From contig CBDEUS010000001.1 of NCBI GenBank assembly GCA_965243395.1, positions 1,215,211-1,279,210 of the forward strand: DNA of 64,000 nt, read 5' to 3'. Source of the DNA: Gammaproteobacteria bacterium (GTDB taxonomy: Bacteria > Pseudomonadota > Gammaproteobacteria > UBA4575). The notes beneath the pieces are model-generated. The model searched no databases. It was not told the origin of the DNA and saw only the letters and a list, made by a program, of their open reading frames with translations. Shown here in pieces: positions 39,973-64,000 of the stretch. Every line of letters starts with the position of its first letter. Positions within the stretch are counted from its first letter, which is position 1. The translations under genes were made by a program, and so were the position numbers.

Positions 39973-39986
39973 TATTAATAAATAGA

Positions 39987-44246: not shown

Positions 44247-44273
44247 TTAAAAATCAAGCAAATATGCCGATAA
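44247..44273 (+). promoter_or_regulatory. sigma28 promoter of the CheY-like gene
   Basis: TTAA-N15-GCCGATAA. Confidence 0.8.
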
Positions 44274-45888: not shown

Positions 45889-48234
45889 ATGAATTATTCG
45901 AATAAAACATCCTCTCAAAAACGAATTATATTATCTTTTATTATTGTTTTTTTCATCGCTGTGCTAACTATCTGTGTGCTGATGTATCAAGTATTTAGCA
46001 AAAATTTAACTGAAAGTTTACATACACGCGCAATTGAAATTATAGATATAATTGATTATATGGCTCAAACCACTGGGGAATCACCTGAGCTAGTAAGAGG
46101 TATTAAAACATTAGCTGCGAATCGCGATATAAAACTCATTATCGTAAGAATTAACGAGCCTCAAGTAGTAATCGCTTCAAATAAAGAAGCATTAATTGGC
46201 TTGCCAACTAATGAAATATTTAATGACATCGGAACTAAACAATCCTTTAAACTGGACTCAAGTAATGATCGATATACTGCAGTTTCTTCTATTTGGTTAG
46301 AAAATAAATTTCACGATGGGCAGTTCACACAAGCCTTTGTTGGTGTTGTTTTCGATACGTATAAAACAAGAATTTTGTTGCAAAAAAAGATATTAAACAC
46401 TTCTTTATATTTGATATTAACGACCATTTTTGCAATTGGAATCATTTATTTACTAACTAATAAATATATTTTTAAACCATTAGAAGTAATTAATTCAACG
46501 TTAAAGAGCAATAATTCAAAAAATGAATTCTCACCTATTCCATTAATAAATAATGATGAAATTGGTGCCGTAGCAAGCACATTGAATAAATTGTTTACTG
46601 AACTTTATACATCTAAGAAAAATCTTCGTGAAACCACTGAACGATATGATTTAGCTATTCAAGGAACAAAAGTAGGTTTAATTGACTGGGATATAGTAAA
46701 TAATGACTTATATTGCTCATCTACACTAATGGACTTACTTGGGTATGATAAAAATAATTTTTCTCCAAGTTCAAGTTGGATTGAAAAACATTCGCATCCT
46801 GATGACAAAGAATCTGCGAAATCAGCATTAATCTCTCATTTAAAATTTAATACCGAATATGATGTCGAAGGTAGATTACAACATAAAAACGGAGAATATA
46901 TATGGATACGCGCGCGAGGACAATCGGTACGCGACGAGAGAGGTAAGGCGATACGCATGGTTGGTTACTATGTAGATATTAGCAAACAAAAAGAACATGA
47001 GCATTTTATGAATTCACTCTATCTATTAAGTGCAGATGCAACCATGTCTATTGAGAACAAACTGAACGCAATTTTAAGCGAAGCAACGGATTTCCTAAAA
47101 TTATCTGGTGGTGTAATTAGCCATATTGTTAACGATAAAGTTATGTTTGACTCATGTATTTGCAAAGAAGAATTAGAGTTTTGTTACTCAAATAAATTAA
47201 ACATTAAAGACACTCTTTACCAATATGTAATTGATAAAAACGATATAGTTTGCTTACACAATATTAATTCTTCAGAACTCAAACACGTTCATGAGCATAA
47301 TGAATATGGTATTAATACATACATTGGCATGCCTTTATATGTACATGGAAGAATTTATGGAACCGTGAGTTTTTTCGATAAAAAAATTAAGCTTAAAGCA
47401 TTTAATGATCGCGAAAAATCGTTTGTACGCTTGCTTTGCCAGTGGATAGGCAATGAAATGATGCGTGCGCAATACATAGATTATCTGCACGATACAGAAA
47501 GCAGATTAGAAGAAGCTGTAGAAGAACTTACAAATATAAATTCTGAATTAGAAAGCTTTACTTATGTTGCATCACATGACTTACAAGAGCCTTTAAGAAT
47601 GATCACAAATTTTACTGGACTTCTAAAAAGAAACTATGGAAATGAATTAGAAAATGAAGCTAAAGAATACTTAGATATATTATATAAGTCTGCAGGACAA
47701 ATGCGCTCATTAATCAATGATCTATTAGACTATGCGCGTGCAAGCAAAGAAAATGAAACCGTAAAAAACATAGATCTCAATGAAATAATCAATCACGTTT
47801 ATGCGAATTTAGAAAAACAAATACGTGAGTCTGGTGCAGAAATTATAATAGGAGACCTTCCAGTAGTTCAGGCTAATAAAGCGAGCATGATCAGCTTACT
47901 GCAAAACTTAATTAGTAACGGTTTAAAGTTTCAGAAAGAAGATCAACATCCCATAATTAAAGTTAACGCTTTTCAATATAGTGATGCTTGGGTAATCGCA
48001 GTACATGACAATGGTATAGGAATAGACAGTGAATATCAGTCCAAAGTTTTTGAACCATTTATAAGGTTGCATCCAAAAAGTGAATATATTGGTACTGGAA
48101 TAGGTTTGACTGTATGCAAGAAAATCGTTGCCAGAATGGGAGGCACATTATGGATAGAATCTGAAATAGGTTTAGGAAGTACTTTTTACATTTCCATTCC
48201 AAATTTTTCTAATCAAACAGGTAAAGCAGCATGA
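45889..48234 (+). CDS. Sensor histidine kinase (2 TM, HAMP, PAS, GAF, Cph1-like HisKA-HATPase)
   Basis: DEIG (HAMP), HPDD/WIRARG (PAS), YIGMPL (GAF), FTYVASHDLQEPLR, GTGIGL. Confidence 0.92.
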   Translation: MNYSNKTSSQKRIILSFIIVFFIAVLTICVLMYQVFSKNLTESLHTRAIEIIDIIDYMAQTTGESPELVRGIKTLAANRDIKLIIVRINEPQVVIASNKEALIGLPTNEIFNDIGTKQSFKLDSSNDRYTAVSSIWLENKFHDGQFTQAFVGVVFDTYKTRILLQKKILNTSLYLILTTIFAIGIIYLLTNKYIFKPLEVINSTLKSNNSKNEFSPIPLINNDEIGAVASTLNKLFTELYTSKKNLRETTERYDLAIQGTKVGLIDWDIVNNDLYCSSTLMDLLGYDKNNFSPSSSWIEKHSHPDDKESAKSALISHLKFNTEYDVEGRLQHKNGEYIWIRARGQSVRDERGKAIRMVGYYVDISKQKEHEHFMNSLYLLSADATMSIENKLNAILSEATDFLKLSGGVISHIVNDKVMFDSCICKEELEFCYSNKLNIKDTLYQYVIDKNDIVCLHNINSSELKHVHEHNEYGINTYIGMPLYVHGRIYGTVSFFDKKIKLKAFNDREKSFVRLLCQWIGNEMMRAQYIDYLHDTESRLEEAVEELTNINSELESFTYVASHDLQEPLRMITNFTGLLKRNYGNELENEAKEYLDILYKSAGQMRSLINDLLDYARASKENETVKNIDLNEIINHVYANLEKQIRESGAEIIIGDLPVVQANKASMISLLQNLISNGLKFQKEDQHPIIKVNAFQYSDAWVIAVHDNGIGIDSEYQSKVFEPFIRLHPKSEYIGTGIGLTVCKKIVARMGGTLWIESEIGLGSTFYISIPNFSNQTGKAA

Positions 48235-48695
48235 ATTTAATTAATACCAAAGACAAAACAGCTGAAATATTATTAATAGAAGATAATGCAGGCGATGTTT
48301 TGTTAACGAAAGAAGCTTTTCGCCATACTCATTTCAAATATAATTTACGAGTAGCTAGAGATGGAGACGAGGCATTAAAAATTTTAAATAGACAAGGCAA
48401 GTATAATAGTTTTCCTATGCCTGATCTTATATTATTAGATCTCAACCTACCTAAAATAGATGGCATAGAAGTATTAGAAAAAATTAAAACTAATTCTGAA
48501 TTAAAAGATATACCAGTAATTATATTGTCTGGATCACAAGCTGAAACTGACATGACTTCTAGCTATGATCTACACGCAAACTCATATGTCATTAAGCCTG
48601 ACAATTTTGATGACTTTAAAGAAATTATAGCTTCAATTGAAAACTTTTGGTTTGAAAAATATGACTCAAATACGGAAGGCAAAACTCTTCACTAA
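48231..48695 (+). CDS. Rcp1-like single-domain response regulator
   Basis: LIEDNAGD, PDLILLDLNLPKIDG, YDLHANSYVIKP, FW; 4-bp overlap with the kinase. Confidence 0.92.
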   Translation: MNLINTKDKTAEILLIEDNAGDVLLTKEAFRHTHFKYNLRVARDGDEALKILNRQGKYNSFPMPDLILLDLNLPKIDGIEVLEKIKTNSELKDIPVIILSGSQAETDMTSSYDLHANSYVIKPDNFDDFKEIIASIENFWFEKYDSNTEGKTLH

Positions 48696-48707
48696 ACTTA
48701 ATTAGAA

Positions 48708-50063
48708 TTATCTTTCTTGAAATGCATTTTGGAAACCACGATAAATAGGCTTTAATAAGTAATCTAAAACAGATTTCTCCCCTGTCTTTATATCTGCTTG
48801 TACAGTCATGCCTGGAATAATGCGATACTTATTGGCGTAACTACCTACATAATCTTTATCTAATGCTATTTTAGCTTGGAAATAAGGATTGTGTTGTTCA
48901 TCTAAGAAAGTAGATGCACTGATTTGTTCTACTTTACCCATGACCGTTCCAAATCTATGTGGATCATAGCTGTTTATTTTAACTTCGGCAGGTTGCCCAA
49001 TACTTACATGCCCAATATCCGATGTTGCCACCCTTGACTCTACAATTAGAATATCTCCTGCTGGAACAATTTCCATAATTGTTTCTCCAGGCTTAATGAC
49101 ACTCTGTATGGTATTCACTGCCAAACCTTTGACAATACCTGATACGGGTGCGGTTATTTCCAATCTTTTTACGCGGTCTTGAAACTTCAGCAAATTCTTA
49201 TCCAGCTCTGCTAGTTCACCAGATACTTGCCCGATTTCCTTTTTAATTGTTTCATTGAACTTACTGTCTAATTCATCAAAAGATGCATATGCCTCTTCTT
49301 TAGCCTCTGTGGCTACGCGTATATTTGATAAAGTTTGCTGATATTGTGTTTCCGTTTCTGCCATATTAGTTTGTCTATCTAAGTATTCAGCGCGTGAAAT
49401 CAACCCTCGCTTAACTAAATCCTTCCTCATTTCTACCTGTTGTTGAAGCACATTAAGCTCTCGCTTTAAATATTTTGCATTACTGTTTTCTCTTCGAAGC
49501 TCTTGTTCACGCTGTTTAATTTTTGTTTGAGCCACGTCAGACTGAGCTAGATAACTTTTTAGTTGTGCCTTGTAAATATTTATTTCACTTTCAACTAATC
49601 CTGGATAATTATTCGTATATTTAGAAAAATCTGGCTCGACGCCAGTTAATATTGAATTTAGTCTTATGAGTTGTATTTTTAGTACTGCATGGCGTGCTTC
49701 TACTTGTTGTAAGTCAGACTTTGAAGCCGTAGGTGAAATGAGTATTAACACATCACCTTTGTTAACTAACTCACCATCGTTAACATTTATCGCCTTAACG
49801 ATACCTCCTTCTAAATGTTGAACTACATGATTTCGTCCACTTGGCACAACTTCACCTGTAGTGACAGCAACTTCATTAACAGGCGTCACGTAAGCCCATA
49901 TCACAGCAGCGACACATAAAAATGTCATTGTCATGATTCCAATGCTTACAGCACCCGGCGCATCTGACTCTTCAAGCTGTATTGATTGAGCAATAAAACG
50001 AGCTCGCGCCCTAGGTACTTCCGACTTAACTTTATCGGACAAAGATAAACTTTCTTCTGTCAT
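48708..50063 (-). CDS. HlyD-family T1SS membrane fusion protein
   Basis: VQHLEGGIV, ITAPVSGIV, PGMTVQADIKTG.KSVLDYLLKP..FQER. Confidence 0.96.
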   Translation of the reverse strand: MTEESLSLSDKVKSEVPRARARFIAQSIQLEESDAPGAVSIGIMTMTFLCVAAVIWAYVTPVNEVAVTTGEVVPSGRNHVVQHLEGGIVKAINVNDGELVNKGDVLILISPTASKSDLQQVEARHAVLKIQLIRLNSILTGVEPDFSKYTNNYPGLVESEINIYKAQLKSYLAQSDVAQTKIKQREQELRRENSNAKYLKRELNVLQQQVEMRKDLVKRGLISRAEYLDRQTNMAETETQYQQTLSNIRVATEAKEEAYASFDELDSKFNETIKKEIGQVSGELAELDKNLLKFQDRVKRLEITAPVSGIVKGLAVNTIQSVIKPGETIMEIVPAGDILIVESRVATSDIGHVSIGQPAEVKINSYDPHRFGTVMGKVEQISASTFLDEQHNPYFQAKIALDKDYVGSYANKYRIIPGMTVQADIKTGEKSVLDYLLKPIYRGFQNAFQER

Positions 50064-52249
50064 CTTTTCATCTCCGTTAGATATTTAATTGCTTCACCTG
50101 GAGTTCCAACATGAGCGACCATGCCATTCACCATAACAATAGCTCGATCTGCTAATTGAATATGTGAAGGTCTATGGCTCACCATTAAAATAGTTTGTTT
50201 GCCACGCATTTTTTCTAGATGATTCATTAAATTTTGATCAGTAATTTTATCTAATGAAGTACCCGGCTCATCCATTAAAAAAATAGGCGCTTGACGAATA
50301 TATGAACGTGCTAAACAAATCCCATTAACCAATCCGGAAGGTAAACGTGAAGTAGTATGATCACCTACTAATGTTTCAAATCCCTCTGGAAGTTTATTGA
50401 TTGAATTTAATATGCCAGCCTGATCAGCTGCTTGTATTAATTGCTTATCAGTTGCCAATGGTTGATTCAAACGAATGTTTTGCCCAATCGTCCCATAAAA
50501 TAAATTAGGTTTTTGAGGCATATACGCAATCACGCGGCGAAGATCTGTAGCATTCATTTGTCGCACATCTGTATCATCAATAGATAACATCCCCGCTTGC
50601 GTACGATACATTCCTGCCACTAACTTTAGAACTGTAGATTTGCCTGATCCGTTGCCACCCACAATAGCTACAAACTCCCCAGGATTAATTGTGAATGACG
50701 CACCGATTAGTGCCGGATCATCATTTTGAGCGTATCGAAACGTAACACGATCAAAAACAATTTTTCCGGAAATTTTCGGCATGATTAATCCAGCTTTATA
50801 ACTATTTTGTTCCGATGGAACTCGCATAAGTTGATTCAATTGTTTTATGCTTTGTGTTATCTGATCAATTTGAAGCATGGCTAGACAAACTCCTTGCAAT
50901 GGTGCAAGTACTCGCCAAATCAGTGCCATGACTGCAATTAATGCGCCTATCGTCATATCACCAGCCATAACTTTCAAAGTACCTAAAGTTAAAACTGAAA
51001 TACCAGCTATAGTCATCAATGATTGTGCAACACTATTAATTAAAGCATGGCTTGTAGAAGTCCTATAAGTGCGCATCATAGCTTCACCTGATGACTCCCG
51101 ATAAAGCTCCAACCATGCGCCTTCTGCACCTAGAGATTTTAATTCCCGCAAACCCGAAAAAGTTTCCATTAACATTCGTTGCCTCGCAGAACGTGCATGC
51201 CCTGCATGAACTAGCTTTTTATTTAAACCAGGAAACCATAACCAACCAAAGATAAAATAAATAGCAATCATGACAATAGGCACAAATGCAATGCTCCCTC
51301 CCAGTAAAAATAGCAAAGCGATAAATAGTAATACGAATGGAAGTTCCAAAAATAAAGTTGCGCTTGGACCAGTAAAAAAATCTCGGATGGATTCAAATTG
51401 CCTTAAACGAGATAATTGTGAAATTACTGTTGAGCGTTCAGTTAATCCTGGAGGCAACGAAAGAATTTTTTTAAACGTTTCAACCCCGATGATATAATCA
51501 AGCCTGCCTGCAAGAAGGCCTAGTGTTTTTGAACGTACAAGACGAAAAATTAATTCGCACATTAGTGCAATACCAATTCCCGCCATTAGAAATGGTATGC
51601 TATTAGTAGATCTTGCTCCTATTACATTGTCATACACCACCATGATAAATAACGGTACAAACATAGCGATGATATTTAACATAAAAGTCATTGCCACCAA
51701 ATGTTTAACAAGCTTTCGAAACCGTTTTAATATCTGGATAAACCATTGATCTGCTGACTGTTCTTGCCCAGTCATGGCATGGGTTGGATGCATATCTGTG
51801 AATAAATATGCAGTGCCCTTTTCGTTTAAGATATTCCCTGCAAAATAATCATTTTTGTGAGCATCAAAATACGTAACTTCACTACTCTCTTTCTTTGAAA
51901 TTACATATAACCCGCCTGAATCTGATTCAAACAAACAGGGCAGTAATGATGAATTTAATTTACTAATAGTAGTTTTTTTCTCGTCACTCTCATAACCCAA
52001 TGTCACTAACATGTTACGCAAATCTACTAAATCTAGATGATCAGCAAAATGTGGGATCGCTTCAATTAACTCGCGTTTATAAGATCGCCAACCTAACTCA
52101 GAGAGTATCGGCATAATACAAGCTGCATAAGGAGAAATTTCTGCAGCTTTTGCAAAAGTGCTATTGCGTATAGAGTTTGCTAAACGCTCCGATAAAGGGA
52201 GACGTTTCTCATCTACTAATCTTTTTATATCTCCTACAGTAACACTCAT
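50060..52249 (-). CDS. T1SS ABC transporter subunit with N-terminal C39-like domain
   Basis: PLFIMVVYDNVI, GGNGSGKST, FLMDEP, SHRPS; non-canonical signature LPSG. Confidence 0.93.
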   Translation of the reverse strand: MSVTVGDIKRLVDEKRLPLSERLANSIRNSTFAKAAEISPYAACIMPILSELGWRSYKRELIEAIPHFADHLDLVDLRNMLVTLGYESDEKKTTISKLNSSLLPCLFESDSGGLYVISKKESSEVTYFDAHKNDYFAGNILNEKGTAYLFTDMHPTHAMTGQEQSADQWFIQILKRFRKLVKHLVAMTFMLNIIAMFVPLFIMVVYDNVIGARSTNSIPFLMAGIGIALMCELIFRLVRSKTLGLLAGRLDYIIGVETFKKILSLPPGLTERSTVISQLSRLRQFESIRDFFTGPSATLFLELPFVLLFIALLFLLGGSIAFVPIVMIAIYFIFGWLWFPGLNKKLVHAGHARSARQRMLMETFSGLRELKSLGAEGAWLELYRESSGEAMMRTYRTSTSHALINSVAQSLMTIAGISVLTLGTLKVMAGDMTIGALIAVMALIWRVLAPLQGVCLAMLQIDQITQSIKQLNQLMRVPSEQNSYKAGLIMPKISGKIVFDRVTFRYAQNDDPALIGASFTINPGEFVAIVGGNGSGKSTVLKLVAGMYRTQAGMLSIDDTDVRQMNATDLRRVIAYMPQKPNLFYGTIGQNIRLNQPLATDKQLIQAADQAGILNSINKLPEGFETLVGDHTTSRLPSGLVNGICLARSYIRQAPIFLMDEPGTSLDKITDQNLMNHLEKMRGKQTILMVSHRPSHIQLADRAIVMVNGMVAHVGTPGEAIKYLTEMKR

Positions 52250-52257
52250 AATTGACT

Positions 52258-54021
52258 CTATTCGTTCACCGCTTGGTTAATTGATGGAGAACAATTCTCT
52301 AAATCTTTTTGACTAGCTTTAAATTTAATTGGTTTTAATATTCCTTCAGTAAGCTCAAAATGCCGGTCACAGATAGCTAAAAGAGATGGTCGATGTGAAA
52401 TAACAACCATCGTTAATCCTTTATGATTCTCAGAGAGATATTTATGTAAACGTGCTTCATTGCCAAAGTCTAAACACGAATTTGCATCATCAAATAAGAG
52501 TATTTTTGGCGCACCATGTACAGCATCACCAATCATCGAACGTACTAAAATTATTTGTTGTCGCACGCCAGCAGGTATTGAATCTACATTCGCCCCACCA
52601 ATTCGCGTATCAAGTCCATTTGGTAACTTGGTAATCGCTTTTGTTAGCCCAAATATTTCAGCAAGCTCTATCGCTTGATCAACTGCATATCCTTCACGGA
52701 ATAAAGTAAGGTTATCAAGAATAGTTCCCTCGTAAATTGTTCCCTGTTGCGGCATAAGTGCAGTTTGTGCGCGCACCGAAGAGCCGTCTAGCGATTTAAT
52801 ATTTTTACCATCAAGTAAAACTTCACCTTGCGTAGGATTAACAAATCCCATTATTAAATTAATTAAGGTTGTTTTACCAACACCATTCGCACCAATAATT
52901 CCAATAGCTTCACCCGGTTTAACATGCAAAGAAATTCCAGATAGTAATTCAGAATTACTTCCTTCATGCTTAAAATGTACATCTCGTATTTCGATTTCAC
53001 CTTTTAAAGTTGTTGGAAGTGAGCTTTCCTTCAATGCTTCAGAGGGTAATGAAAGCATTTCATTTATCTTTTCACCTGCAATATTTACAGCTTGCAACTG
53101 CGTCCATAGTCCCATAGCTTTAAGTGCTGGTTGAAGAACACGACCTGAAAGCATTGTACCCGCTGCCAATGCTCCTACAGTCAGATCACCCGAAACTACA
53201 TATATACTTCCAATACCAACGAAACTCACCATTACAATTTGCGAGAATGTTGCACCCAACCCAGACACTACACTGTTAATACGACTGACTTCATATACAC
53301 TTGCAGCAGATTGTGATTGTAATCTTTCGTACCGACGCAGCATCAGCGCTTCCATCGCCATAGCTTTAACGGTATGGATACCTTGTAATATTTCGATTAG
53401 GAAATCTTGTCTACGTTGATCTGCTGAGGAACGTTGCTCTAGTGCAACTTTTAGTTTTTTTCCTGTGAAATATGAAATCACAATAAATATACCTATTACT
53501 GTGATTGGAATTAAAACCATCCCTCCCGCAAACACAAAAATCAAAATAAGAAAAACCAAGACAAAAGGAAGATCTACTAACATCAAAATGTTCTGCCCAG
53601 AATAAAATTCTCGGACTTTTTTAAGACTCTCCATCTTATCTAAATAAGAACCAATCGAATCACTTTCAAATTTAACTAAATCTGAGTGCACGACTTTATC
53701 AATAGAATTTATCCCTTCTGTGTGTTCATACTGCACACCCTTCCAAGTAAGAATAGCTGAGCGTGCTACACGTAATACACCATCCAATAGAGCTGCGATT
53801 AATAAACCAAAAACTAATAATGCAAAAGTGTCGATTGCCTGATTTGGTAGAATACGGTCATAAACTTGTAAAATAACTAAAGGCAATGCCAAGGTAGCAA
53901 GATTGATAAACAATGATGCAAGCAAAACATCCCAACGTTTCCACGCCGTTGGAACACGATGCATACCCTCTTCACTATTATCTTTCGCTATTAGTTGCTG
54001 ACTCATAACCTGAGCTTCCAA
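52258..54021 (-). CDS. Second T1SS ABC transporter subunit
   Basis: PLVILQVYDRIL, GANGVGKTT, signature IPAG, Walker B LLFDDA, SHRPS. Confidence 0.93.
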   Translation of the reverse strand: MEAQVMSQQLIAKDNSEEGMHRVPTAWKRWDVLLASLFINLATLALPLVILQVYDRILPNQAIDTFALLVFGLLIAALLDGVLRVARSAILTWKGVQYEHTEGINSIDKVVHSDLVKFESDSIGSYLDKMESLKKVREFYSGQNILMLVDLPFVLVFLILIFVFAGGMVLIPITVIGIFIVISYFTGKKLKVALEQRSSADQRRQDFLIEILQGIHTVKAMAMEALMLRRYERLQSQSAASVYEVSRINSVVSGLGATFSQIVMVSFVGIGSIYVVSGDLTVGALAAGTMLSGRVLQPALKAMGLWTQLQAVNIAGEKINEMLSLPSEALKESSLPTTLKGEIEIRDVHFKHEGSNSELLSGISLHVKPGEAIGIIGANGVGKTTLINLIMGFVNPTQGEVLLDGKNIKSLDGSSVRAQTALMPQQGTIYEGTILDNLTLFREGYAVDQAIELAEIFGLTKAITKLPNGLDTRIGGANVDSIPAGVRQQIILVRSMIGDAVHGAPKILLFDDANSCLDFGNEARLHKYLSENHKGLTMVVISHRPSLLAICDRHFELTEGILKPIKFKASQKDLENCSPSINQAVNE

Positions 54022-54051
54022 TTCCTTTTACGAAATTACATACGAATACGG

Positions 54052-54074
54052 CCCATCAACTTCCTATTGATAGG
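54052..54074 (-). promoter_or_regulatory. GGA-loop hairpin in the T1SS leader
   Basis: CCUAUCAA-UAGGAAG-UUGAUGGG. Confidence 0.5.
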
Positions 54075-54097
54075 CTTGAACTAGTTCTATGAAAAAT

Positions 54098-54124
54098 ATA
54101 TCGGCTAAAGAATTAAACTCTTTA
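54098..54124 (-). promoter_or_regulatory. sigma28 promoter of the T1SS operon
   Basis: TAAA-N15-GCCGATAT, 76 bp upstream of the first ABC gene. Confidence 0.82.
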
Positions 54125-54200
54125 GAAATCAGAAAGTTGCTGGCTCGCAGTGGATAAAAGACGCCTATTTAAGGATAAAGGGCGTTGACGGGAGCATAGA

Positions 54201-54233
54201 TGTGGATTAGCCATCAGAAATAGCTAATCCACA
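54201..54233 (-). terminator. Stem-loop between the adhesin/small ORF and the T1SS promoter
   Basis: Perfect 11-bp inverted repeat TGTGGATTAGC/GCTAATCCACA; no clear U-tract. Confidence 0.5.
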
Positions 54234-54330
54234 CCAAATATTAATTTGAAAAGTCTTATCAGACTGAATATCAAATGCTTTAACTAGTAGAGTAAAAGCA
54301 AATATAAATTAAAATAAGTTCTACACGATT

Positions 54331-54432
54331 TTACTTACTTTTTAATAAATATTTTTTCATGCCTTGCAAAAACCAAATTTGCATTAAAACTACTACCATA
54401 GCTAACGTCATCATCCATATAGATGTCATCAT
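54331..54432 (-). CDS. Unannotated 33-aa single-TM small protein
   Basis: GGAGGT SD 7 nt before ATG; MMTSIWMMTLAMVVVLMQIWFLQGMKKYLLKSK*; starts 27 bp after the adhesin stop. Confidence 0.6.
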   Translation of the reverse strand: MMTSIWMMTLAMVVVLMQIWFLQGMKKYLLKSK

Positions 54433-54459
54433 TTTATTTACCTCCATGTAGTTAATAAT

Positions 54460-57400
54460 TTACCACTGAATTTGTTCAACACCATCGAATGTAATTTCAC
54501 TACCATCATCGAATGTAATTACACCAGAGACATCAGAACCAACATCTAAAAATCCTTGATCAAGGTCATAACTCACTTCGTTACCATCTACTGTTATCGT
54601 CCATGGGTTATCGGGATCTGGTTGCGATGCGATATCAACATCCAATTCGACCACATCAGTCCAACCCCCACCATTACCACCACTAAATGAATCGCTGTCG
54701 CCAAGTGCTTCGAAAATATAAACATCGTCCCCTGCACCACCGACTGCTATATCATCTCCTTCACCACCAATTAAAACATCATTACCATCACCGCCTTGTA
54801 ACGTATCATCTCCTGCACCACCATAAATAACATCGTCACCATCATCACCACGCAAGAAGTCATTTCCTTCCCCGCCAAATAACAAATCGGCATCATCACC
54901 ACCCGAAATTCGATCATCTCCATCACCACCGAATAGAGAATCTTGACCTGCATCACCACTTAGAGAATCATTATCACTACCACCATAAATAGTGTCGTCT
55001 CCAGCATCGCCCCTTATGGTGTCAGAACCTGCACCACCATATAAAGTATCATCACCAATGGTTCCATTTAAATTGTCATTAGAGGACGAACCTAAAGCAT
55101 CAAAGTTTTCATCATTTGAAACAATAGTCATAGATAATGTATCAGAAACTGTAGCGGTATCCCCTGTACTTGTTTCTGTAGAAGTTACACTTACCCCGAT
55201 ATCTATATCGCCAGTAAAACCATCTTTCATATTAAAAGTAAGACTACCTAACTGAGAAGCATCAACCTGCGCTACACCATTTACTATTGCAATACTTGAC
55301 CCACCGCTTGCTAATTCCGCGCCTGTAGGAATTCCCGTTAGTTCAATTGACATTGATTCAGATCCATCAGTGTCAACAAGAGAGGCATTAATCAATGAGG
55401 ACAAATCGATATCCTGCCCTGCAACATATCCACTTGATTCATTAAATTGTAAATCATCAATAAATGCACCACGTCCATAAGCGTGCACTGCACCAACGTC
55501 TTGGAGTTGTAGTCGAACATCACCACCTGTTCCAACAAATTGAATTGAATGTGTTTGCCAAGTCAATTCGCTGACAGTATTGCCATCCCAATCAATCGAA
55601 ACTGTTTTGATAATATCTCCAGTACTTTCATCAATAACATTTACATTAAAGTCCATGTAAGATTCAAATCCTGGTCGCGGCGAAACTTTAAATGACAATT
55701 CGTATGCAGTATCTGTAGTTGTGGTTTCTACTCGTTCCAATAAACCTGCATCTGGGTAAGTACCGGCTGATTGATCATCTAATTCAATAAACATATCACC
55801 TTGTGCAGCATCACCTGCAATGTCATTTTCATGCCAAACTTCAATAGAATTACCTGCAGGTGCGCTCCATCCATCAATCGGGCCAGTTTCAAATCCTGAC
55901 GAAGTAGAACCAATTTCGAAATCTGCAGTCGCCAAATTGGTAACCCCATCTGCATCAGTAACAACTAATGTCGGCGCATCCACAACAGCGTCAACCGTTA
56001 CATCAATACTGTTGTTATAACTTTCAGTAACACCATCTTCAGTGATGTCAGTTTGAACAGTTAAAGTAAAGTCATCATCACTGTGAGAAGGTGGTGTGAT
56101 GGTTAAACCTGATAGATCTGATTGATCTAATGTCCAAGTTCCATCGCCATTATCAGTACCAGCTGACAATACCGCCCCTGCTGGTACAGCGCCTATAGTA
56201 ACTACTACTGTGGCACCTACTTCAACATTTGAAACCTGTATATCTAGTGCGATTGCACTATCTTCATTGCCTAACGAATTAGTGGTTAATACCAAACCAC
56301 CTTCGTTTGCATCGGTAATAGCAATATCAAATGATGCATTGGATGTTGAACCATCACTACTCGTTGCAGTAACTTCAATTTGCATGCTTGATGCAGTCTC
56401 GAAATCAAGCCCGCTAGGATCTGCTACCGTTACTTCACCAGTATTTGCATCAATTGCAAAGGCGTTGTTTGGATTAATGCTTAAACTATATGTAACACTA
56501 TCACTAGCATCCAGATCTTCTGCGAAAGCAGTGATCCCAACACTGTCACCTACAGATGCAATTTCAGACACAGTATTATTATTCTCTGCACTGGTTACAT
56601 CACCTGAAAGTTCAATATTATCTATTCGATAAGTCTCAGTGCCAAAACTAACCATTGACTCTACTTCTATAATTAAATTAGAGCCTTCTGGTATGCTTGA
56701 AAAACTGAAATTTGGTCCACCGTCAACATTGCCATCATCAGTTAAAAGTGTATGACGCACACCATCTACATTTGCAATGATTACAATACTATCTTGTGCA
56801 CTACCACTGTCTTCCAGACTTCCAATACTTGTAATATCTAAACTCAATGACAGATTTTCTGCATTGGATATGTCGATAGATTCGCTTTGCCATACTAAGT
56901 CACCTTGCGTACCACCTGCGGAATATGATTGTGAAAATTCATATGCGTCATTATTAACACCATGGTTACCAGTAATGATTGCGCCACTTTCATCTACAGA
57001 CCATGACGTATCTCCAGTATCAGCTTGTGTACCGTCTGCAAAACCATCAAAGTTTTCAGTCCATATTATTTGGTTACTTGTACCTTCATCTAAATCAACA
57101 ATTGGACCAATACTGAATTCGCTATTATCATCGCTGATGCTGATGTTGAACGTCGCAGACGAACTCGAACCGTCATCCGACGTCGCCGTCACTTCGATGC
57201 TCATGGTCGGATTGGTTTCAAAGTCTAACGCCGAGGGATCGTTCACCGTCACTTCACCCGTGGTCGCATCAATCGCAAACGCATTCCCAGGGTTGTTACT
57301 TAAACTGTAAGTAACGTCATCACCAATATCTAAATCTTCCGCAAACGCGGTCACGCCCACACTGTCACCGACATTCGCACTTTCGTTCACCGTGTTGCTC

Positions 57401-60400
57401 GCCGCATCACTGTCGCTCACCGCACTGATGTCGTACTCGTCCGCATCATCACTGATGCTGATGTTGAACGTCGCAGACGAACTCGAACCGTCATCCGACG
57501 TCGCCGTCACTTCGATGCTCATGGTCGGATTGGTTTCAAAGTCTAACGCCGAGGGATCGTTCACCGTCACTTCACCCGTGGTCGCATCAATCGCAAACGC
57601 ATTCCCAGGGTTGTTACTTAAACTGTAAGTAACGTCATCACCAATATCTAAATCTTCCGCAAACGCGGTCACGCCCACACTGTCACCGACATTCGCACTT
57701 TCGTTCACCGTGTTGCTCGCCGCATCACTGTCGCTCACCGCACTGATGTCGTACTCGTCCGCATCATCACTGATGCTGATGTTGAACGTCGCAGACGAAC
57801 TCGAACCGTCATCCGACGTCGCCGTCACTTCGATGCTCATGGTCGGATTGGTTTCAAAGTCTAACGCCGAGGGATCGTTCACCGTCACTTCACCCGTGGT
57901 CGCATCAATCGCAAACGCATTCCCAGGGTTGTTACTTAAACTGTAAGTAACGTCATCACCAATATCTAAATCTTCCGCAAACGCGGTCACGCCCACACTG
58001 TCACCGACATTCGCACTTTCGTTCACCGTGTTGCTCGCCGCATCACTGTCGCTCACCGCACTGATGTCGTACTCGTCCGCATCATCACTGATGCTGATGT
58101 TGAACGTCGCAGACGAACTCGAACCGTCATCCGACGTCGCCGTCACTTCGATGCTCATGGTCGGATTGGTTTCAAAGTCTAACGCCGAGGGATCGTTCAC
58201 CGTCACTTCACCCGTGGTCGCATCAATCGCAAACGCATTCCCAGGGTTGTTACTTAAACTGTAAGTAACGTCATCACCAATATCTAAATCTTCCGCAAAC
58301 GCGGTCACGCCCACACTGTCACCGACATTCGCACTTTCGTTCACCGTGTTGCTCGCCGCATCACTGTCGCTCACCGCACTGATGTCGTACTCGTCCGCAT
58401 CATCACTGATGCTGATGTTGAACGTCGCAGACGAACTCGAACCGTCATCCGACGTCGCCGTCACTTCGATGCTCATGGTCGGATTGGTTTCAAAGTCTAA
58501 CGCCGAGGGATCGTTCACCGTCACTTCACCCGTGGTCGCATCAATCGCAAACGCATTCCCAGGGTTGTTACTTAAACTGTAAGTAACGTCATCACCAATA
58601 TCTAAATCTTCCGCAAACGCGGTCACGCCCACACTGTCACCGACATTCGCACTTTCGTTCACCGTGTTGCTCGCCGCATCACTGTCGCTCACCGCACTGA
58701 TGTCGTACTCGTCCGCATCATCACTGATGCTGATGTTGAACGTCGCAGACGAACTCGAACCGTCATCCGACGTCGCCGTCACTTCGATGCTCATGGTCGG
58801 ATTGGTTTCAAAGTCTAACGCCGAGGGATCGTTCACCGTCACTTCACCCGTGGTCGCATCAATCGCAAACGCATTCCCAGGGTTGTTACTTAAACTGTAA
58901 GTAACGTCATCACCAATATCTAAATCTTCCGCAAACGCGGTCACGCCCACACTGTCACCGACATTCGCACTTTCGTTCACCGTGTTGCTCGCCGCATCAC
59001 TGTCGCTCACCGCACTGATGTCGTACTCGTCCGCATCATCACTGATGCTGATGTTGAACGTCGCAGACGAACTCGAACCGTCATCCGACGTCGCCGTCAC
59101 TTCGATGCTCATGGTCGGATTGGTTTCAAAGTCTAACGCCGAGGGATCGTTCACCGTCACTTCACCCGTGGTCGCATCAATCGCAAACGCATTCCCAGGG
59201 TTGTTACTTAAACTGTAAGTAACGTCATCACCAATATCTAAATCTTCCGCAAACGCGGTCACGCCCACACTGTCACCGACATTCGCACTTTCGTTCACCG
59301 TGTTGCTCGCCGCATCACTGTCGCTCACCGCACTGATGTCGTACTCGTCCGCATCATCACTGATGCTGATGTTGAACGTCGCAGACGAACTCGAACCGTC
59401 ATCCGACGTCGCCGTCACTTCGATGCTCATGGTCGGATTGGTTTCAAAGTCTAACGCCGAGGGATCGTTCACCGTCACTTCACCCGTGGTCGCATCAATC
59501 GCAAACGCATTCCCAGGGTTGTTACTTAAACTGTAAGTAACGTCATCACCAATATCTAAATCTTCCGCAAACGCGGTCACGCCCACACTGTCACCGACAT
59601 TCGCACTTTCGTTCACCGTGTTGCTCGCCGCATCACTGTCGCTCACCGCACTGATGTCGTACTCGTCCGCATCATCACTGATGCTGATGTTGAACGTCGC
59701 AGACGAACTCGAACCGTCATCCGACGTCGCCGTCACTTCGATGCTCATGGTCGGATTGGTTTCAAAGTCTAACGCCGAGGGATCGTTCACCGTCACTTCA
59801 CCCGTGGTCGCATCAATCGCAAACGCATTCCCAGGGTTGTTACTTAAACTGTAAGTAACGTCATCACCAATATCTAAATCTTCCGCAAACGCGGTCACGC
59901 CCACACTGTCACCGACATTCGCACTTTCGTTCACCGTGTTGCTCGCCGCATCACTGTCGCTCACCGCACTGATGTCGTACTCGTCCGCATCATCACTGAT
60001 GCTGATGTTGAACGTCGCAGACGAACTCGAACCGTCATCCGACGTCGCCGTCACTTCGATGCTCATGGTCGGATTGGTTTCAAAGTCTAACGCCGAGGGA
60101 TCGTTCACCGTCACTTCACCCGTGGTCGCATCAATCGCAAACGCATTCCCAGGGTTGTTACTTAAACTGTAAGTAACGTCATCACCAATATCTAAATCTT
60201 CCGCAAACGCGGTCACGCCCACACTGTCACCGACATTCGCACTTTCGTTCACCGTGTTGCTCGCCGCATCACTGTCGCTCACCGCACTGATGTCGTACTC
60301 GTCCGCATCATCACTGATGCTGATGTTGAACGTCGCAGACGAACTCGAACCGTCATCCGACGTCGCCGTCACTTCGATGCTCATGGTCGGATTGGTTTCA

Positions 60401-63400
60401 AAGTCTAACGCCGAGGGATCGTTCACCGTCACTTCACCCGTGGTCGCATCAATCGCAAACGCATTCCCAGGGTTGTTACTTAAACTGTAAGTAACGTCAT
60501 CACCAATATCTAAATCTTCCGCAAACGCGGTCACGCCCACACTGTCACCGACATTCGCACTTTCGTTCACCGTGTTGCTCGCCGCATCACTGTCGCTCAC
60601 CGCACTGATGTCGTACTCGTCCGCATCATCACTGATGCTGATGTTGAACGTCGCAGACGAACTCGAACCGTCATCCGACGTCGCCGTCACTTCGATGCTC
60701 ATGGTCGGATTGGTTTCAAAGTCTAACGCCGAGGGATCGTTCACCGTCACTTCACCCGTGGTCGCATCAATCGCAAACGCATTCCCAGGGTTGTTACTTA
60801 AACTGTAAGTAACGTCATCACCAATATCTAAATCTTCCGCAAACGCGGTCACGCCCACACTGTCACCGACATTCGCACTTTCGTTCACCGTGTTGCTCGC
60901 CGCATCACTGTCGCTCACCGCACTGATGTCGTACTCGTCCGCATCATCACTGATGCTGATGTTGAACGTCGCAGACGAACTCGAACCGTCATCCGACGTC
61001 GCCGTCACTTCGATGCTCATGGTCGGATTGGTTTCAAAGTCTAACGCCGAGGGATCGTTCACCGTCACTTCACCCGTGGTCGCATCAATCGCAAACGCAT
61101 TCCCAGGGTTGTTACTTAAACTGTAAGTAACGTCATCACCAATATCTAAATCTTCCGCAAACGCGGTCACGCCCACACTGTCACCGACATTCGCACTTTC
61201 GTTCACCGTGTTGCTCGCCGCATCACTGTCGCTCACCGCACTGATGTCGTACTCGTCCGCATCATCACTGATGCTGATGTTGAACGTCGCAGACGAACTC
61301 GAACCGTCATCCGACGTCGCCGTCACTTCGATGCTCATGGTCGGATTGGTTTCAAAGTCTAACGCCGAGGGATCGTTCACCGTCACTTCACCCGTGGTCG
61401 CATCAATCGCAAACGCATTCCCAGGGTTGTTACTTAAACTGTAAGTAACGTCATCACCAATATCTAAATCTTCCGCAAACGCGGTCACGCCCACACTGTC
61501 ACCGACATTCGCACTTTCGTTCACCGTGTTGCTCGCCGCATCACTGTCGCTCACCGCACTGATGTCGTACTCGTCCGCATCATCACTGATGCTGATGTTG
61601 AACGTCGCAGACGAACTCGAACCGTCATCCGACGTCGCCGTCACTTCGATGCTCATGGTCGGATTGGTTTCAAAGTCTAACGCCGAGGGATCGTTCACCG
61701 TCACTTCACCCGTGGTCGCATCAATCGCAAACGCATTCCCAGGGTTGTTACTTAAACTGTAAGTAACGTCATCACCAATATCTAAATCTTCCGCAAACGC
61801 GGTCACGCCCACACTGTCACCGACATTCGCACTTTCGTTCACCGTGTTGCTCGCCGCATCACTGTCGCTCACCGCACTGATGTCGTACTCGTCCGCATCA
61901 TCACTGATGCTGATGTTGAACGTCGCAGACGAACTCGAACCGTCATCCGACGTCGCCGTCACTTCGATGCTCATGGTCGGATTGGTTTCAAAGTCTAACG
62001 CCGAGGGATCGTTCACCGTCACTTCACCCGTGGTCGCATCAATCGCAAACGCATTCCCAGGGTTGTTACTTAAACTGTAAGTAACGTCATCACCAATATC
62101 TAAATCTTCCGCAAACGCGGTCACGCCCACACTGTCACCGACATTCGCACTTTCGTTCACCGTGTTGCTCGCCGCATCACTGTCGCTCACCGCACTGATG
62201 TCGTACTCGTCCGCATCATCACTGATGCTGATGTTGAACGTCGCAGACGAACTCGAACCGTCATCCGACGTCGCCGTCACTTCGATGCTCATGGTCGGAT
62301 TGGTTTCAAAGTCTAACGCCGAGGGATCGTTCACCGTCACTTCACCCGTGGTCGCATCAATCGCAAACGCATTCCCAGGGTTGTTACTTAAACTGTAAGT
62401 AACGTCATCACCAATATCTAAATCTTCCGCAAACGCGGTCACGCCCACACTGTCACCGACATTCGCACTTTCGTTCACCGTGTTGCTCGCCGCATCACTG
62501 TCGCTCACCGCACTGATGTCGTACTCGTCCGCATCATCACTGATGCTGATGTTGAACGTCGCAGACGAACTCGAACCGTCATCCGACGTCGCCGTCACTT
62601 CGATGCTCATGGTCGGATTGGTTTCAAAGTCTAACGCCGAGGGATCGTTCACCGTCACTTCACCCGTGGTCGCATCAATCGCAAACGCATTCCCAGGGTT
62701 GTTACTTAAACTGTAAGTAACGTCATCACCAATATCTAAATCTTCCGCAAACGCGGTCACGCCCACACTGTCACCGACATTCGCACTTTCGTTCACCGTG
62801 TTGCTCGCCGCATCACTGTCGCTCACCGCACTGATGTCGTACTCGTCCGCATCATCACTGATGCTGATGTTGAACGTCGCAGACGAACTCGAACCGTCAT
62901 CCGACGTCGCCGTCACTTCGATGCTCATGGTCGGATTGGTTTCAAAGTCTAACGCCGAGGGATCGTTCACCGTCACTTCACCCGTGGTCGCATCAATCGC
63001 AAACGCATTCCCAGGGTTGTTACTTAAACTGTAAGTAACGTCATCACCAATATCTAAATCTTCCGCAAACGCGGTCACGCCCACACTGTCACCGACATTC
63101 GCACTTTCGTTCACCGTGTTGCTCGCCGCATCACTGTCGCTCACCGCACTGATGTCGTACTCGTCCGCATCATCACTGATGCTGATGTTGAACGTCGCAG
63201 ACGAACTCGAACCGTCATCCGACGTCGCCGTCACTTCGATGCTCATGGTCGGATTGGTTTCAAAGTCTAACGCCGAGGGATCGTTCACCGTCACTTCACC
63301 CGTGGTCGCATCAATCGCAAACGCATTCCCAGGGTTGTTACTTAAACTGTAAGTAACGTCATCACCAATATCTAAATCTTCCGCAAACGCGGTCACGCCC

Positions 63401-64000
63401 ACACTGTCACCGACATTCGCACTTTCGTTCACCGTGTTGCTCGCCGCATCACTGTCGCTCACCGCACTGATGTCGTACTCGTCCGCATCATCACTGATGC
63501 TGATGTTGAACGTCGCAGACGAACTCGAACCGTCATCCGACGTCGCCGTCACTTCGATGCTCATGGTCGGATTGGTTTCAAAGTCTAACGCCGAGGGATC
63601 GTTCACCGTCACTTCACCCGTGGTCGCATCAATCGCAAACGCATTCCCAGGGTTGTTACTTAAACTGTAAGTAACGTCATCACCAATATCTAAATCTTCC
63701 GCAAACGCGGTCACGCCCACACTGTCACCGACATTCGCACTTTCGTTCACCGTGTTGCTCGCCGCATCACTGTCGCTCACCGCACTGATGTCGTACTCGT
63801 CCGCATCATCACTGATGCTGATGTTGAACGTCGCAGACGAACTCGAACCGTCATCCGACGTCGCCGTCACTTCGATGCTCATGGTCGGATTGGTTTCAAA
63901 GTCTAACGCCGAGGGATCGTTCACCGTCACTTCACCCGTGGTCGCATCAATCGCAAACGCATTCCCAGGGTTGTTACTTAAACTGTAAGTAACGTCATCA
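54460..64000 (-). CDS. Giant RTX/cadherin-repeat adhesin, T1SS substrate (5' end beyond the window)
   Basis: >3150 aa open frame; cadherin motifs (LDFE, AEDLD, FAIDATTGEVTV); ~14 GGxGxD-type nonapeptides; C-terminal FDGVEQIQW. Confidence 0.95.
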   Translation of the reverse strand, partial: DDVTYSLSNNPGNAFAIDATTGEVTVNDPSALDFETNPTMSIEVTATSDDGSSSSATFNISISDDADEYDISAVSDSDAASNTVNESANVGDSVGVTAFAEDLDIGDDVTYSLSNNPGNAFAIDATTGEVTVNDPSALDFETNPTMSIEVTATSDDGSSSSATFNISISDDADEYDISAVSDSDAASNTVNESANVGDSVGVTAFAEDLDIGDDVTYSLSNNPGNAFAIDATTGEVTVNDPSALDFETNPTMSIEVTATSDDGSSSSATFNISISDDADEYDISAVSDSDAASNTVNESANVGDSVGVTAFAEDLDIGDDVTYSLSNNPGNAFAIDATTGEVTVNDPSALDFETNPTMSIEVTATSDDGSSSSATFNISISDDADEYDISAVSDSDAASNTVNESANVGDSVGVTAFAEDLDIGDDVTYSLSNNPGNAFAIDATTGEVTVNDPSALDFETNPTMSIEVTATSDDGSSSSATFNISISDDADEYDISAVSDSDAASNTVNESANVGDSVGVTAFAEDLDIGDDVTYSLSNNPGNAFAIDATTGEVTVNDPSALDFETNPTMSIEVTATSDDGSSSSATFNISISDDADEYDISAVSDSDAASNTVNESANVGDSVGVTAFAEDLDIGDDVTYSLSNNPGNAFAIDATTGEVTVNDPSALDFETNPTMSIEVTATSDDGSSSSATFNISISDDADEYDISAVSDSDAASNTVNESANVGDSVGVTAFAEDLDIGDDVTYSLSNNPGNAFAIDATTGEVTVNDPSALDFETNPTMSIEVTATSDDGSSSSATFNISISDDADEYDISAVSDSDAASNTVNESANVGDSVGVTAFAEDLDIGDDVTYSLSNNPGNAFAIDATTGEVTVNDPSALDFETNPTMSIEVTATSDDGSSSSATFNISISDDADEYDISAVSDSDAASNTVNESANVGDSVGVTAFAEDLDIGDDVTYSLSNNPGNAFAIDATTGEVTVNDPSALDFETNPTMSIEVTATSDDGSSSSATFNISISDDADEYDISAVSDSDAASNTVNESANVGDSVGVTAFAEDLDIGDDVTYSLSNNPGNAFAIDATTGEVTVNDPSALDFETNPTMSIEVTATSDDGSSSSATFNISISDDADEYDISAVSDSDAASNTVNESANVGDSVGVTAFAEDLDIGDDVTYSLSNNPGNAFAIDATTGEVTVNDPSALDFETNPTMSIEVTATSDDGSSSSATFNISISDDADEYDISAVSDSDAASNTVNESANVGDSVGVTAFAEDLDIGDDVTYSLSNNPGNAFAIDATTGEVTVNDPSALDFETNPTMSIEVTATSDDGSSSSATFNISISDDADEYDISAVSDSDAASNTVNESANVGDSVGVTAFAEDLDIGDDVTYSLSNNPGNAFAIDATTGEVTVNDPSALDFETNPTMSIEVTATSDDGSSSSATFNISISDDADEYDISAVSDSDAASNTVNESANVGDSVGVTAFAEDLDIGDDVTYSLSNNPGNAFAIDATTGEVTVNDPSALDFETNPTMSIEVTATSDDGSSSSATFNISISDDADEYDISAVSDSDAASNTVNESANVGDSVGVTAFAEDLDIGDDVTYSLSNNPGNAFAIDATTGEVTVNDPSALDFETNPTMSIEVTATSDDGSSSSATFNISISDDADEYDISAVSDSDAASNTVNESANVGDSVGVTAFAEDLDIGDDVTYSLSNNPGNAFAIDATTGEVTVNDPSALDFETNPTMSIEVTATSDDGSSSSATFNISISDDADEYDISAVSDSDAASNTVNESANVGDSVGVTAFAEDLDIGDDVTYSLSNNPGNAFAIDATTGEVTVNDPSALDFETNPTMSIEVTATSDDGSSSSATFNISISDDADEYDISAVSDSDAASNTVNESANVGDSVGVTAFAEDLDIGDDVTYSLSNNPGNAFAIDATTGEVTVNDPSALDFETNPTMSIEVTATSDDGSSSSATFNISISDDADEYDISAVSDSDAASNTVNESANVGDSVGVTAFAEDLDIGDDVTYSLSNNPGNAFAIDATTGEVTVNDPSALDFETNPTMSIEVTATSDDGSSSSATFNISISDDADEYDISAVSDSDAASNTVNESANVGDSVGVTAFAEDLDIGDDVTYSLSNNPGNAFAIDATTGEVTVNDPSALDFETNPTMSIEVTATSDDGSSSSATFNISISDDADEYDISAVSDSDAASNTVNESANVGDSVGVTAFAEDLDIGDDVTYSLSNNPGNAFAIDATTGEVTVNDPSALDFETNPTMSIEVTATSDDGSSSSATFNISISDDNSEFSIGPIVDLDEGTSNQIIWTENFDGFADGTQADTGDTSWSVDESGAIITGNHGVNNDAYEFSQSYSAGGTQGDLVWQSESIDISNAENLSLSLDITSIGSLEDSGSAQDSIVIIANVDGVRHTLLTDDGNVDGGPNFSFSSIPEGSNLIIEVESMVSFGTETYRIDNIELSGDVTSAENNNTVSEIASVGDSVGITAFAEDLDASDSVTYSLSINPNNAFAIDANTGEVTVADPSGLDFETASSMQIEVTATSSDGSTSNASFDIAITDANEGGLVLTTNSLGNEDSAIALDIQVSNVEVGATVVVTIGAVPAGAVLSAGTDNGDGTWTLDQSDLSGLTITPPSHSDDDFTLTVQTDITEDGVTESYNNSIDVTVDAVVDAPTLVVTDADGVTNLATADFEIGSTSSGFETGPIDGWSAPAGNSIEVWHENDIAGDAAQGDMFIELDDQSAGTYPDAGLLERVETTTTDTAYELSFKVSPRPGFESYMDFNVNVIDESTGDIIKTVSIDWDGNTVSELTWQTHSIQFVGTGGDVRLQLQDVGAVHAYGRGAFIDDLQFNESSGYVAGQDIDLSSLINASLVDTDGSESMSIELTGIPTGAELASGGSSIAIVNGVAQVDASQLGSLTFNMKDGFTGDIDIGVSVTSTETSTGDTATVSDTLSMTIVSNDENFDALGSSSNDNLNGTIGDDTLYGGAGSDTIRGDAGDDTIYGGSDNDSLSGDAGQDSLFGGDGDDRISGGDDADLLFGGEGNDFLRGDDGDDVIYGGAGDDTLQGGDGNDVLIGGEGDDIAVGGAGDDVYIFEALGDSDSFSGGNGGGWTDVVELDVDIASQPDPDNPWTITVDGNEVSYDLDQGFLDVGSDVSGVITFDDGSEITFDGVEQIQW
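54715..55095 (-). repeat. RTX Ca2+-binding nonapeptide repeats (~14)
   Basis: GGAGSDTIR, GDAGDDTIY, GGDGDDRIS, GGEGNDFLR, GGAGDDTLQ and others. Confidence 0.93.
57127..64000 (-). repeat. Tandem 318-bp repeat (106-aa cadherin unit), ~21.6 apparently identical copies
   Basis: Exact 318-bp periodicity, also shown by identical antisense ORFs every 318 bp. Confidence 0.98.

Follow-up and report, generated by a model that had tools for sequence, protein, structure and literature searches.

A predicted sigma-28 promoter before a type I secretion operon beside a giant cadherin-RTX adhesin in a conserved flagellar gene island

The stretch of DNA analysed here (the window, 64,000 nucleotides, positions 1,215,211 to 1,279,210 of contig CBDEUS010000001.1, below C1, of assembly GCA_965243395.1) comes from a gammaproteobacterium whose lineage is uncultured and is represented by metagenome-assembled genomes (MAGs) labelled Gammaproteobacteria or Thiotrichales. 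At its right-hand end, all on the minus strand, lie the C-terminal part of a giant cadherin-RTX adhesin (3,179 aa, open-ended frame, 54460-64000) and three genes of a type I secretion system (T1SS). These are ABC1, a permease/ATPase of the ATP-binding cassette (ABC) type of 582 aa (52258-54006; profile search, ATG from the ortholog alignment); ABC2, an LssB/HlyB-like permease/ATPase of 729 aa (50060-52249); and a periplasmic adaptor of the HlyD family (48708-50063; TIGR01843, 398.9 bits against a cut-off of 208.65). ABC1 and ABC2 are separated by 8 nt, and ABC2 and hlyD overlap by 4 nt, so that the three genes form one operon. In the intergenic DNA between the adhesin stop (54460) and ABC1, and pointing towards ABC1, is the element TAAAGAGTTTAATTCTTTAGCCGATAT (minus strand, 54098-54124), a predicted promoter of the sigma-28 (FliA) type. 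A reading of the window made from the letters alone (the sequence-only reading) had noted this motif directly before the ABC-ABC-HlyD genes, and it is found exactly there. We favour the view, with a probability of roughly 0.6, that the locus encodes a FliA-gated adhesin of motile cells, in which a dedicated T1SS operon expressed from a FliA promoter exports the neighbouring cadherin-RTX protein.

The element consists of TAAA at 54124-54121 (TAAAG as the -35), a spacing of 15 nt and GCCGATAT at 54105-54098 (the -10), the end of which is 92 nt from the ABC1 ATG; transcription would be expected to start near 54090-54092. Against the sigma-28 consensus used (-35 TAAA(G), 15-nt spacing, -10 GCCGATAA), the site, TAAAG-N14-GCCGATAT, agrees at 11 of 12 positions. 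The strict pattern TAAA-N15-GCCGATAW is present three times in the window, where 0.01 copies are expected and where none of 100 shuffles gave three. The genome of 2,578,523 bases has seven copies, about 1.1 being expected from base composition by our own estimate. Genome-wide, 9 of 16 sites of the form TAAA-N15-GCCGAT are intergenic, compared to an intergenic share of the genome of about 10%, a figure that rests on crude gene calls covering about 90% of it. Sites that agree at all 12 consensus positions divide into five intergenic and one coding, those at 11 positions into 7 and 18, and those at 10 positions into 19 and 131. A weight matrix was also built, from 14 sites of the studied genome (G000), a genome of the same genus (G011) and one of another genus (G022). 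The training sites precede fliC, flgM, motA, a diguanylate cyclase operon, a CheY-like operon and a channel gene; the two sites under test, before the T1SS and before the adhesin gene, were left out. By this matrix the T1SS site scores 15.83, which is 28th of all positions and 14th among the intergenic ones, and 21 of the 64 sites with scores of at least 14 are intergenic. No sigma-70-like site was found in 53800-54700, where shuffled sequence averages 4.0.

The site is kept in relatives. Orthologs of ABC1 (58-95% identity) are present in 11 of 40 related genomes, and another is in a genome from a public collection (L049, 79%); upstream DNA is available for 11 of these 12 loci. The sequence-only reading had proposed looking for the motif before orthologous two-ABC T1SS loci, and in 10 of the 11, belonging to at least two genera, TAAAG(A/G)GTTT-N9-GCCG(A/T)TA stands at a constant distance from the start codon, with the -35 TAAAG and the -10 GCCG(A/T)TA unchanged. 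In the 11 aligned sequences that include G000, the -10 reads GCCGATA in seven and GCCGTTA in four, the second form being also the one before motA of G000. The flanking intergenic DNA further upstream does not align among the orthologs, and in G022 and L049 the spacer itself diverges, both elements being kept. The exceptional locus is that of G024 (58% identity), where GCCGTTAA is kept but the tetramer 15 nt away is TAAT, and TAAAG lies 24 nt away. The motif counts and the ortholog conservation thus lend in silico backing to a promoter of the sigma-28 type. The regulatory reading is well supported by comparative evidence of this kind, and the exporter operon probably depends on FliA.

The T1SS site belongs to a set of similar sites in the window. 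An exact sigma-28 site precedes the flagellin gene (23438-24787) at 24890-24916 on the minus strand and serves as the reference promoter. A second exact site, at 41646-41672 on the minus strand, stands before an operon (38554-41612) for a GltS-like FMN protein of 541 aa and a GGDEF cyclase of 472 aa, and is conserved in G011 and G022. In both of these genomes two more sites are conserved: TAAA-N15-GCCGTTAC before motA-motB-pilZ (44141-44167, minus strand) and TTAA-N15-GCCGATAA before the CheY-like operon (44247-44273, plus strand), which are back to back, 80 nt apart and in opposite directions. The CheY-like operon, which converges on hlyD, encodes a CheY-like regulator, an NMT1-like binding protein, a PAS/GAF histidine kinase and a second regulator. 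Before flgM the site is TCAA-N15-GCCGATAA (36409-36435, plus strand), with a match of 12/12 in G011. Of the fliC, flgM and motA promoters with which the sequence-only reading had compared the T1SS element, fliC matches the strict pattern exactly; motA has GCCGTTAC, and the -35 of flgM agrees at three of four positions.

The gene order around these sites is also conserved. From the adhesin gene it runs through ABC1, ABC2, HlyD, a response regulator, the PAS/GAF kinase, the binding protein, the CheY-like regulator, motA, motB, PilZ, the GltS-like gene, two GGDEF genes, a flgN-like gene, flgM and flgA to flgB, identically in G000, G011 and G022. In each of the three genomes sigma-28-type sites precede six units (flgM, the GltS-like/GGDEF operon, motA, the CheY-like operon, the T1SS and the adhesin gene), with spacers that differ among the genomes. 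The locus had been described as adjoining a flagellar and cyclic di-GMP block; by its gene order and sites it is a conserved extension of that block. The flagellar set of the window is of the polar type, with FlhF, a MinD-like ATPase, two sigma-54 activators with a kinase, FlaG and one flagellin, the only flagellin gene in the genome; flgA, flgM, motAB with a PilZ gene and two GGDEF genes are there as well. The fliA gene lies 300 nt beyond the left edge of the window (C1:1214250-1214900; 262.5 bits, above cut-off), and FlgM also scores above its cut-off (68.6 bits). In all 11 genomes of the genus that have flagellar genes, G000 included, FliA is found above cut-off. FliW was not found in a search whose control was positive, so that a FliW/CsrA checkpoint would not add a timing link here.

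A second sigma factor of the FliA/WhiG family (233 aa, 170 bits, below cut-off) is encoded in a non-flagellar context at G000:C2:831031-831732 (L076:4032-4733), and is followed by an open reading frame (ORF) of 109 aa. An exact sigma-28 motif at C2:835017-835043, 3 kb from this gene, precedes a gene for a DnaJ-domain protein. The second sigma factor was considered as the reader of the motifs and rejected, as only G000 and G012 were seen to have it and the motifs are also kept in genomes with FliA alone. Another exact motif lies about 2 kb to the left of the window (G000:C1:1213146-1213172; L032), 122 nt before a gene of 343 aa that is directly downstream of fliA and resembles a voltage-gated K+ channel; the late flagellar regulon may thus include an ion channel.

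The distribution of the exporter follows that of flagella. Of the 25 genomes of the family, G000 included, 13 have a Flagellin_N match, and the 12 in which the T1SS ortholog was found all belong to these 13; in none of the 12 genomes without flagellin was the T1SS found. The one flagellate genome without it is G002, where the contig breaks inside the neighbouring kinase gene. In G014 (92% complete) flagellin, FliA and the T1SS were not found, and a stump of the adhesin gene of 252 aa is kept. It looks like one deletion took the body of the adhesin together with the flagellar island. The stump (L039, G014:C4:145325-148165) retains the motif upstream of the adhesin gene and abuts a gene whose translation has a GGDEF-like C-terminal domain.

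The start of the adhesin gene lies outside the window, which ends at the end of C1. The frame resumes at the end of contig C2, where the 5' part begins with an ATG at C2:1291507 and continues for 2,602 aa to the contig end (G000:C2:1291507-1299313). The sequence TAAATTTTTAAGTGTATTGGCCGAATT sits 55 nt ahead of this ATG. It has the form TAAA-N15-GCCGAA, agreeing with the consensus at 9 of 12 positions, and if it serves as a promoter the start would be expected about 7 nt past GCCGAATT. The core TAAA-N15-GCCGA is present before the adhesin gene in 10 of 11 genomes, G008 having TCAA. The whole upstream region of 110 nt is conserved, however, so conservation cannot single out promoter elements in it. 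Beside the promoter-like core there are conserved blocks, AATCACGAACTTGGTCACA upstream and TCTTAATGCGGATAAGTACGTATTT in the leader (G000:C2:1291380-1291398 and 1291453-1291480). A sigma-70-like site was not found on the coding strand upstream of the gene. Whether the adhesin gene is itself FliA-dependent could, on this evidence, go either way. An ORF for a membrane protein of about 40 aa, whose start region is conserved in relatives, is divergent from the adhesin gene (G000:C2:1291100-1291225; L031).

The two ABC proteins of the exporter differ from each other. The listed ORF of ABC1 is 52258-54021, and the ATG conserved in orthologs is at 54006-54004, behind GGAAGC. ABC1 is without an N-terminal C39-like domain; its Walker A motif is GANGVGKT and its Walker B motif, ILLFDD, lacks the catalytic Glu. 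ABC2, with the Walker B motif IFLMDE, has about 150 additional N-terminal residues and is 27% identical to ABC1. The canonical LSGGQ signature was found in neither nucleotide-binding domain. The lack of the catalytic Glu in ABC1, together with the lack of a canonical signature in both domains, suggests that the exporter is an asymmetric heterodimeric ABC pair. Genes for TolC-like proteins are at four loci elsewhere in the genome, none near a site of at least 11 of 12 consensus positions.

Other conserved features flank the T1SS promoter. The leader contains a stem-loop (54051-54075, minus strand), about 15-40 nt past the predicted start, of whose seven pairs four have compensatory changes in 11 sequences; the loop contains GGA in some genomes. 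No Rfam family was found in 48000-55000 at E <= 1. About 50 nt upstream of the -35 is the block GTCAACGCCCTTTATC (54174-54189, minus strand), followed by TTTTATC. The block stands beside the T1SS promoter in all orthologs, whether the small ORF described below is present or not. It is unique in the genome in its exact form, and four more matches appear with up to two mismatches; it may be the site of a regulator. This block, the block upstream of the adhesin gene and the adhesin leader were all tried as genome-wide regulatory motifs and dropped, as none has an exact copy away from its own locus. Immediately past the adhesin stop, and ahead of the promoter, comes an ORF for a hydrophobic product of 33 aa with a strong ribosome-binding site, GGAGG (54331-54432, minus strand), seen in 4 of 11 genomes (G000, G012, G003 and G005).

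The adhesin is at least 5,781 aa long, the contig break that splits it falling inside identical cadherin-like repeats of 106 aa. At least 21 identical copies of the repeat are in the window part, and the array goes on in C2. The window part has 23 Cadherin stretches and four HemolysinCabind stretches (87.8-96.2 bits). The latter are all the HemolysinCabind matches of the genome, making this the sole RTX protein of G000. The order of domains is the 106-aa repeats, a first jelly-roll-like domain (non-repeat, all-beta), one further cadherin repeat, two repeat modules around a second jelly-roll-like domain, RTX nonapeptide repeats and a C-terminal tail. This is the usual plan of RTX adhesins, namely, extender repeats followed by probable jelly-roll binding domains and RTX repeats, and would put two probable binding domains near the distal C-terminus. 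For these all-beta regions a match to DUF642 was obtained at E 0.034, below the cut-off of that family, and atlas comparisons of the all-beta regions gave Cleaved_Adhesin, CBM_4_9, DUF642 and GalBD-like families at 0.82-0.85, as weak leads only. A single-sequence model of the second jelly-roll-like domain (pLDDT, the predicted local distance difference test, 54.3) found nothing in the PDB with Foldseek at E <= 0.001, only generic Ig-like rows. The C-terminal 676 aa gave 6,093 matches among 1.84 billion representatives, mostly to repeats common to other giant proteins; the names are generic ('Ca2+-binding RTX toxin-like protein'), with no named close relative among them. A sequence search of the PDB gave only RTX blocks, cadherins and one fragment of a 'Large adhesion protein'.

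The other end of the protein is distinctive. Residues 1-60 are nearly invariant in nine genomes and account for most of the 49 invariant columns over 240 aligned N-terminal residues; an acidic low-complexity linker follows. The first 240 aa match no Pfam or NCBIfam family except for the start of the first cadherin repeat, and a scoring of 399 other genomes from throughout the class did not find the N-terminal module. A structure model of the N-terminus from nine sequences (pLDDT 47.9) has a helix at residues 2-17 and no confident fold elsewhere. Searches were also made for the parts of a release switch. LapG (Peptidase_C93, PF06035) had no match in this genome, which is 100% complete, the control being positive in Caulobacter. 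LapD (PF16448) also had no match, but as the control was negative in all 14 genomes this result is uninformative. No site of the form (T/A/P)AA(G/V), which we take to be the LapG cleavage motif, was found, the sole AA in the first 200 residues being in DAAD.

These features leave room for a protein that is released altogether and serves outside the cell as a calcium-binding matrix or in aggregation, rather than as a cell-anchored adhesin. The lack of LapG, the acidic linker after the conserved first 60 residues and a modelled N-terminus that is one helix (pLDDT 48, low confidence) are in keeping with release. However, so strongly conserved a segment points to a specific interaction, possibly anchoring, and a model of low confidence cannot prove a fold absent; SiiE, moreover, is reportedly an RTX adhesin retained without LapG. 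We consider full release improbable.

The same features could instead belong to a protein that is no surface adhesin but is associated with the flagellum as a sheath, coat, tether or bundling matrix, as in the magnetotactic strain MO-1. The sequence-only reading had named that precedent, and it is borne out by the literature, in which the MO-1 sheath is described as a glycoprotein of more than 350 kDa with calcium-dependent assembly (PMC7175107). The protein here would resemble it in being a very large, secreted and calcium-dependent protein tied to the flagellar apparatus. Nothing in the data points to a sheath, to glycosylation or to bundled flagella. FliA would time export with growth of the filament, and the 60-aa N-terminal module would dock at the flagellar pole. 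In favour of such a role are export on the sigma factor of flagellin, inheritance of the locus with the flagellar block, the missing LapG and an N-terminus that is clade-specific and has no known retention module. The architecture is nevertheless the usual one of RTX adhesins with probable distal binding domains, and flagellar co-regulation is accounted for by the FrhA adhesin of Vibrio cholerae without invoking a sheath. The single flagellin gene, unlike MO-1, and an ordinary polar flagellar set with nothing like the MO-1 apparatus also speak mildly against it. Both the sheath and the docking that it entails are very unlikely.

The favoured reading, a FliA-gated adhesin, can be put as a sequence of steps. 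Once the hook-basal body is finished FlgM would exit the cell, and the freed FliA would transcribe the genes for flagellin, motAB-pilZ, the diguanylate cyclase operon, the CheY-like two-component operon and the exporter. With the exporter under FliA, the giant protein is proposed to reach the surface solely when a cell has a functional flagellum or is assembling one; it would leave by way of a TolC-like channel whose gene lies at another place in the genome. Outside the cell, calcium would stiffen the cadherin and RTX parts, and the two distal jelly-roll-like domains would bind a ligand. The protein would thus be a first-contact adhesin of swimming and not of settled cells, as FrhA is, with a direct promoter and without a LapG/LapD release switch.

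Several observations weigh against this reading. The T1SS site (GCCGATAT) is the least perfect among the strict matches and comes only 28th by the independent matrix. None of five distant homologues of ABC1 (33-53% identity; from Sedimenticola, alphaproteobacterial and other MAGs) has the motif even in a relaxed pattern; the distant homologue L053 has GCCGATTA without TAAA at the right spacing. Co-occurrence with flagella may merely reflect physical linkage and loss of the block, and because the genomes are related and the genes linked, the pattern shows co-inheritance, not function. The binding domains were assigned on the weak DUF642 (E 0.034) and atlas (0.82-0.85) matches. Within the genus the spacer is unusually conserved, as are about 13 nt upstream of the -35, which is beyond what sigma-28 needs; some of this conservation might be due to another factor. 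In the extreme case the motif would have no promoter function at all, and would be kept for an unrelated factor or by plain low divergence. This is most unlikely in view of the strong enrichment of strict and near-strict matches in intergenic DNA, and of an orientation and a 92-nt distance to the start codon that suit a promoter. It also has to contend with the spacers of G022 and L049, which diverge where both elements stay, and with the presence in the island of five more conserved sites of this kind.

The remaining points concern the substrate. The motif before the adhesin gene scores 9.21 by the matrix, in the range of background, and its class is not enriched between genes (2 of 8 sites intergenic); with so weak a motif, synthesis of the substrate may not be FliA-dependent. 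The search for an intrinsic terminator between the adhesin stop and ABC1 was negative, and read-through from upstream may therefore also feed the T1SS operon. From these points one can construct an alternative in which the adhesin and the T1SS are made mainly from one long transcript independent of FliA, with the sigma-28 site as an internal booster that tops up the exporter in motile cells; adhesin production would then extend beyond the motile phase. The further conserved blocks upstream of the adhesin gene would fit such an arrangement. The same region is, however, also without a sigma-70-like site on the coding strand and has the TAAA-N15-GCCGA core in nearly all genomes, and the stretch between the adhesin gene and the T1SS contains, in G000 and G012, a strong hairpin as well as a separate small ORF. 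We regard the booster as unlikely.

Large RTX adhesins are a textbook output of the sessile, high cyclic di-GMP state, FrhA being the known exception. The sequence-only reading had pointed to FrhA, and rightly so: published accounts place frhA in class IV and make it dependent on both FliA and the diguanylate cyclase CdgD, which is itself FliA-dependent (PMC6890996, PMC6504787). The flagellar link of frhA is described as running via CdgD by an unclear mechanism. The present protein is like FrhA in architecture, a giant adhesin with cadherin and RTX parts, flagellar control being deduced here from promoter motifs, and the FliA-CdgD link has a possible counterpart in the exact sigma-28 site before the GGDEF operon (41646-41672). 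Unlike the situation with FrhA, consensus-type sigma-28 elements stand directly before the exporter, those ahead of the adhesin gene being weaker. The locus here is, moreover, physically within the flagellar gene block. FrhA also has a LapG-type N-terminal site and is under LapG/LapD control, whereas LapG was not found here. In the open-access full-text literature we found nothing beyond FrhA on a direct sigma-28 promoter for an RTX adhesin or a T1SS. Most likely the coupling is a direct-promoter variant of the FrhA theme.

Two other systems are useful for comparison. LapA/LapBCE of Pseudomonas fluorescens and its relatives is similar in that a giant repeat adhesin with C-terminal RTX repeats is exported by a T1SS, with adjoining ABC and membrane fusion protein (MFP) genes and a TolC-type channel. 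A LapA-type system uses a single ABC protein and an adhesin whose N-terminal retention module carries a di-alanine LapG site; it is controlled by cyclic di-GMP through LapD/LapG and is generally favoured in sessile cells with high cyclic di-GMP. Here, in contrast, there are two ABC proteins, no LapG was found, the N-terminus is clade-specific and the promoter would be one of the motile phase. In gene content the exporter resembles the atypical, four-component MARTX T1SS, which has two ABC proteins (RtxB/RtxE) and the MFP RtxD, with TolC encoded elsewhere (PMC3034196). Its genes run ABC-ABC-MFP where MARTX has B-D-E, its presumed substrate is a cadherin-repeat adhesin in place of a MARTX toxin, and ABC1, unlike the RtxB/RtxE pair, is without the N-terminal domain and the catalytic Glu.

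The locus would offer a clean natural case of hard-wired coupling, in which an exporter with a consensus-type sigma-28 promoter is part of a late flagellar island and is inherited with it. Were the sheath reading true, it would give such a structure its first mapped genetic and regulatory basis beyond the magnetotactic cocci. If the FliA-gated adhesin is the correct reading, the combination of a two-ABC T1SS and a sigma-28 box would be a simple signature for finding such systems in other genomes, and FliA regulons could hold a complete secretion system for the attachment of swimming cells.

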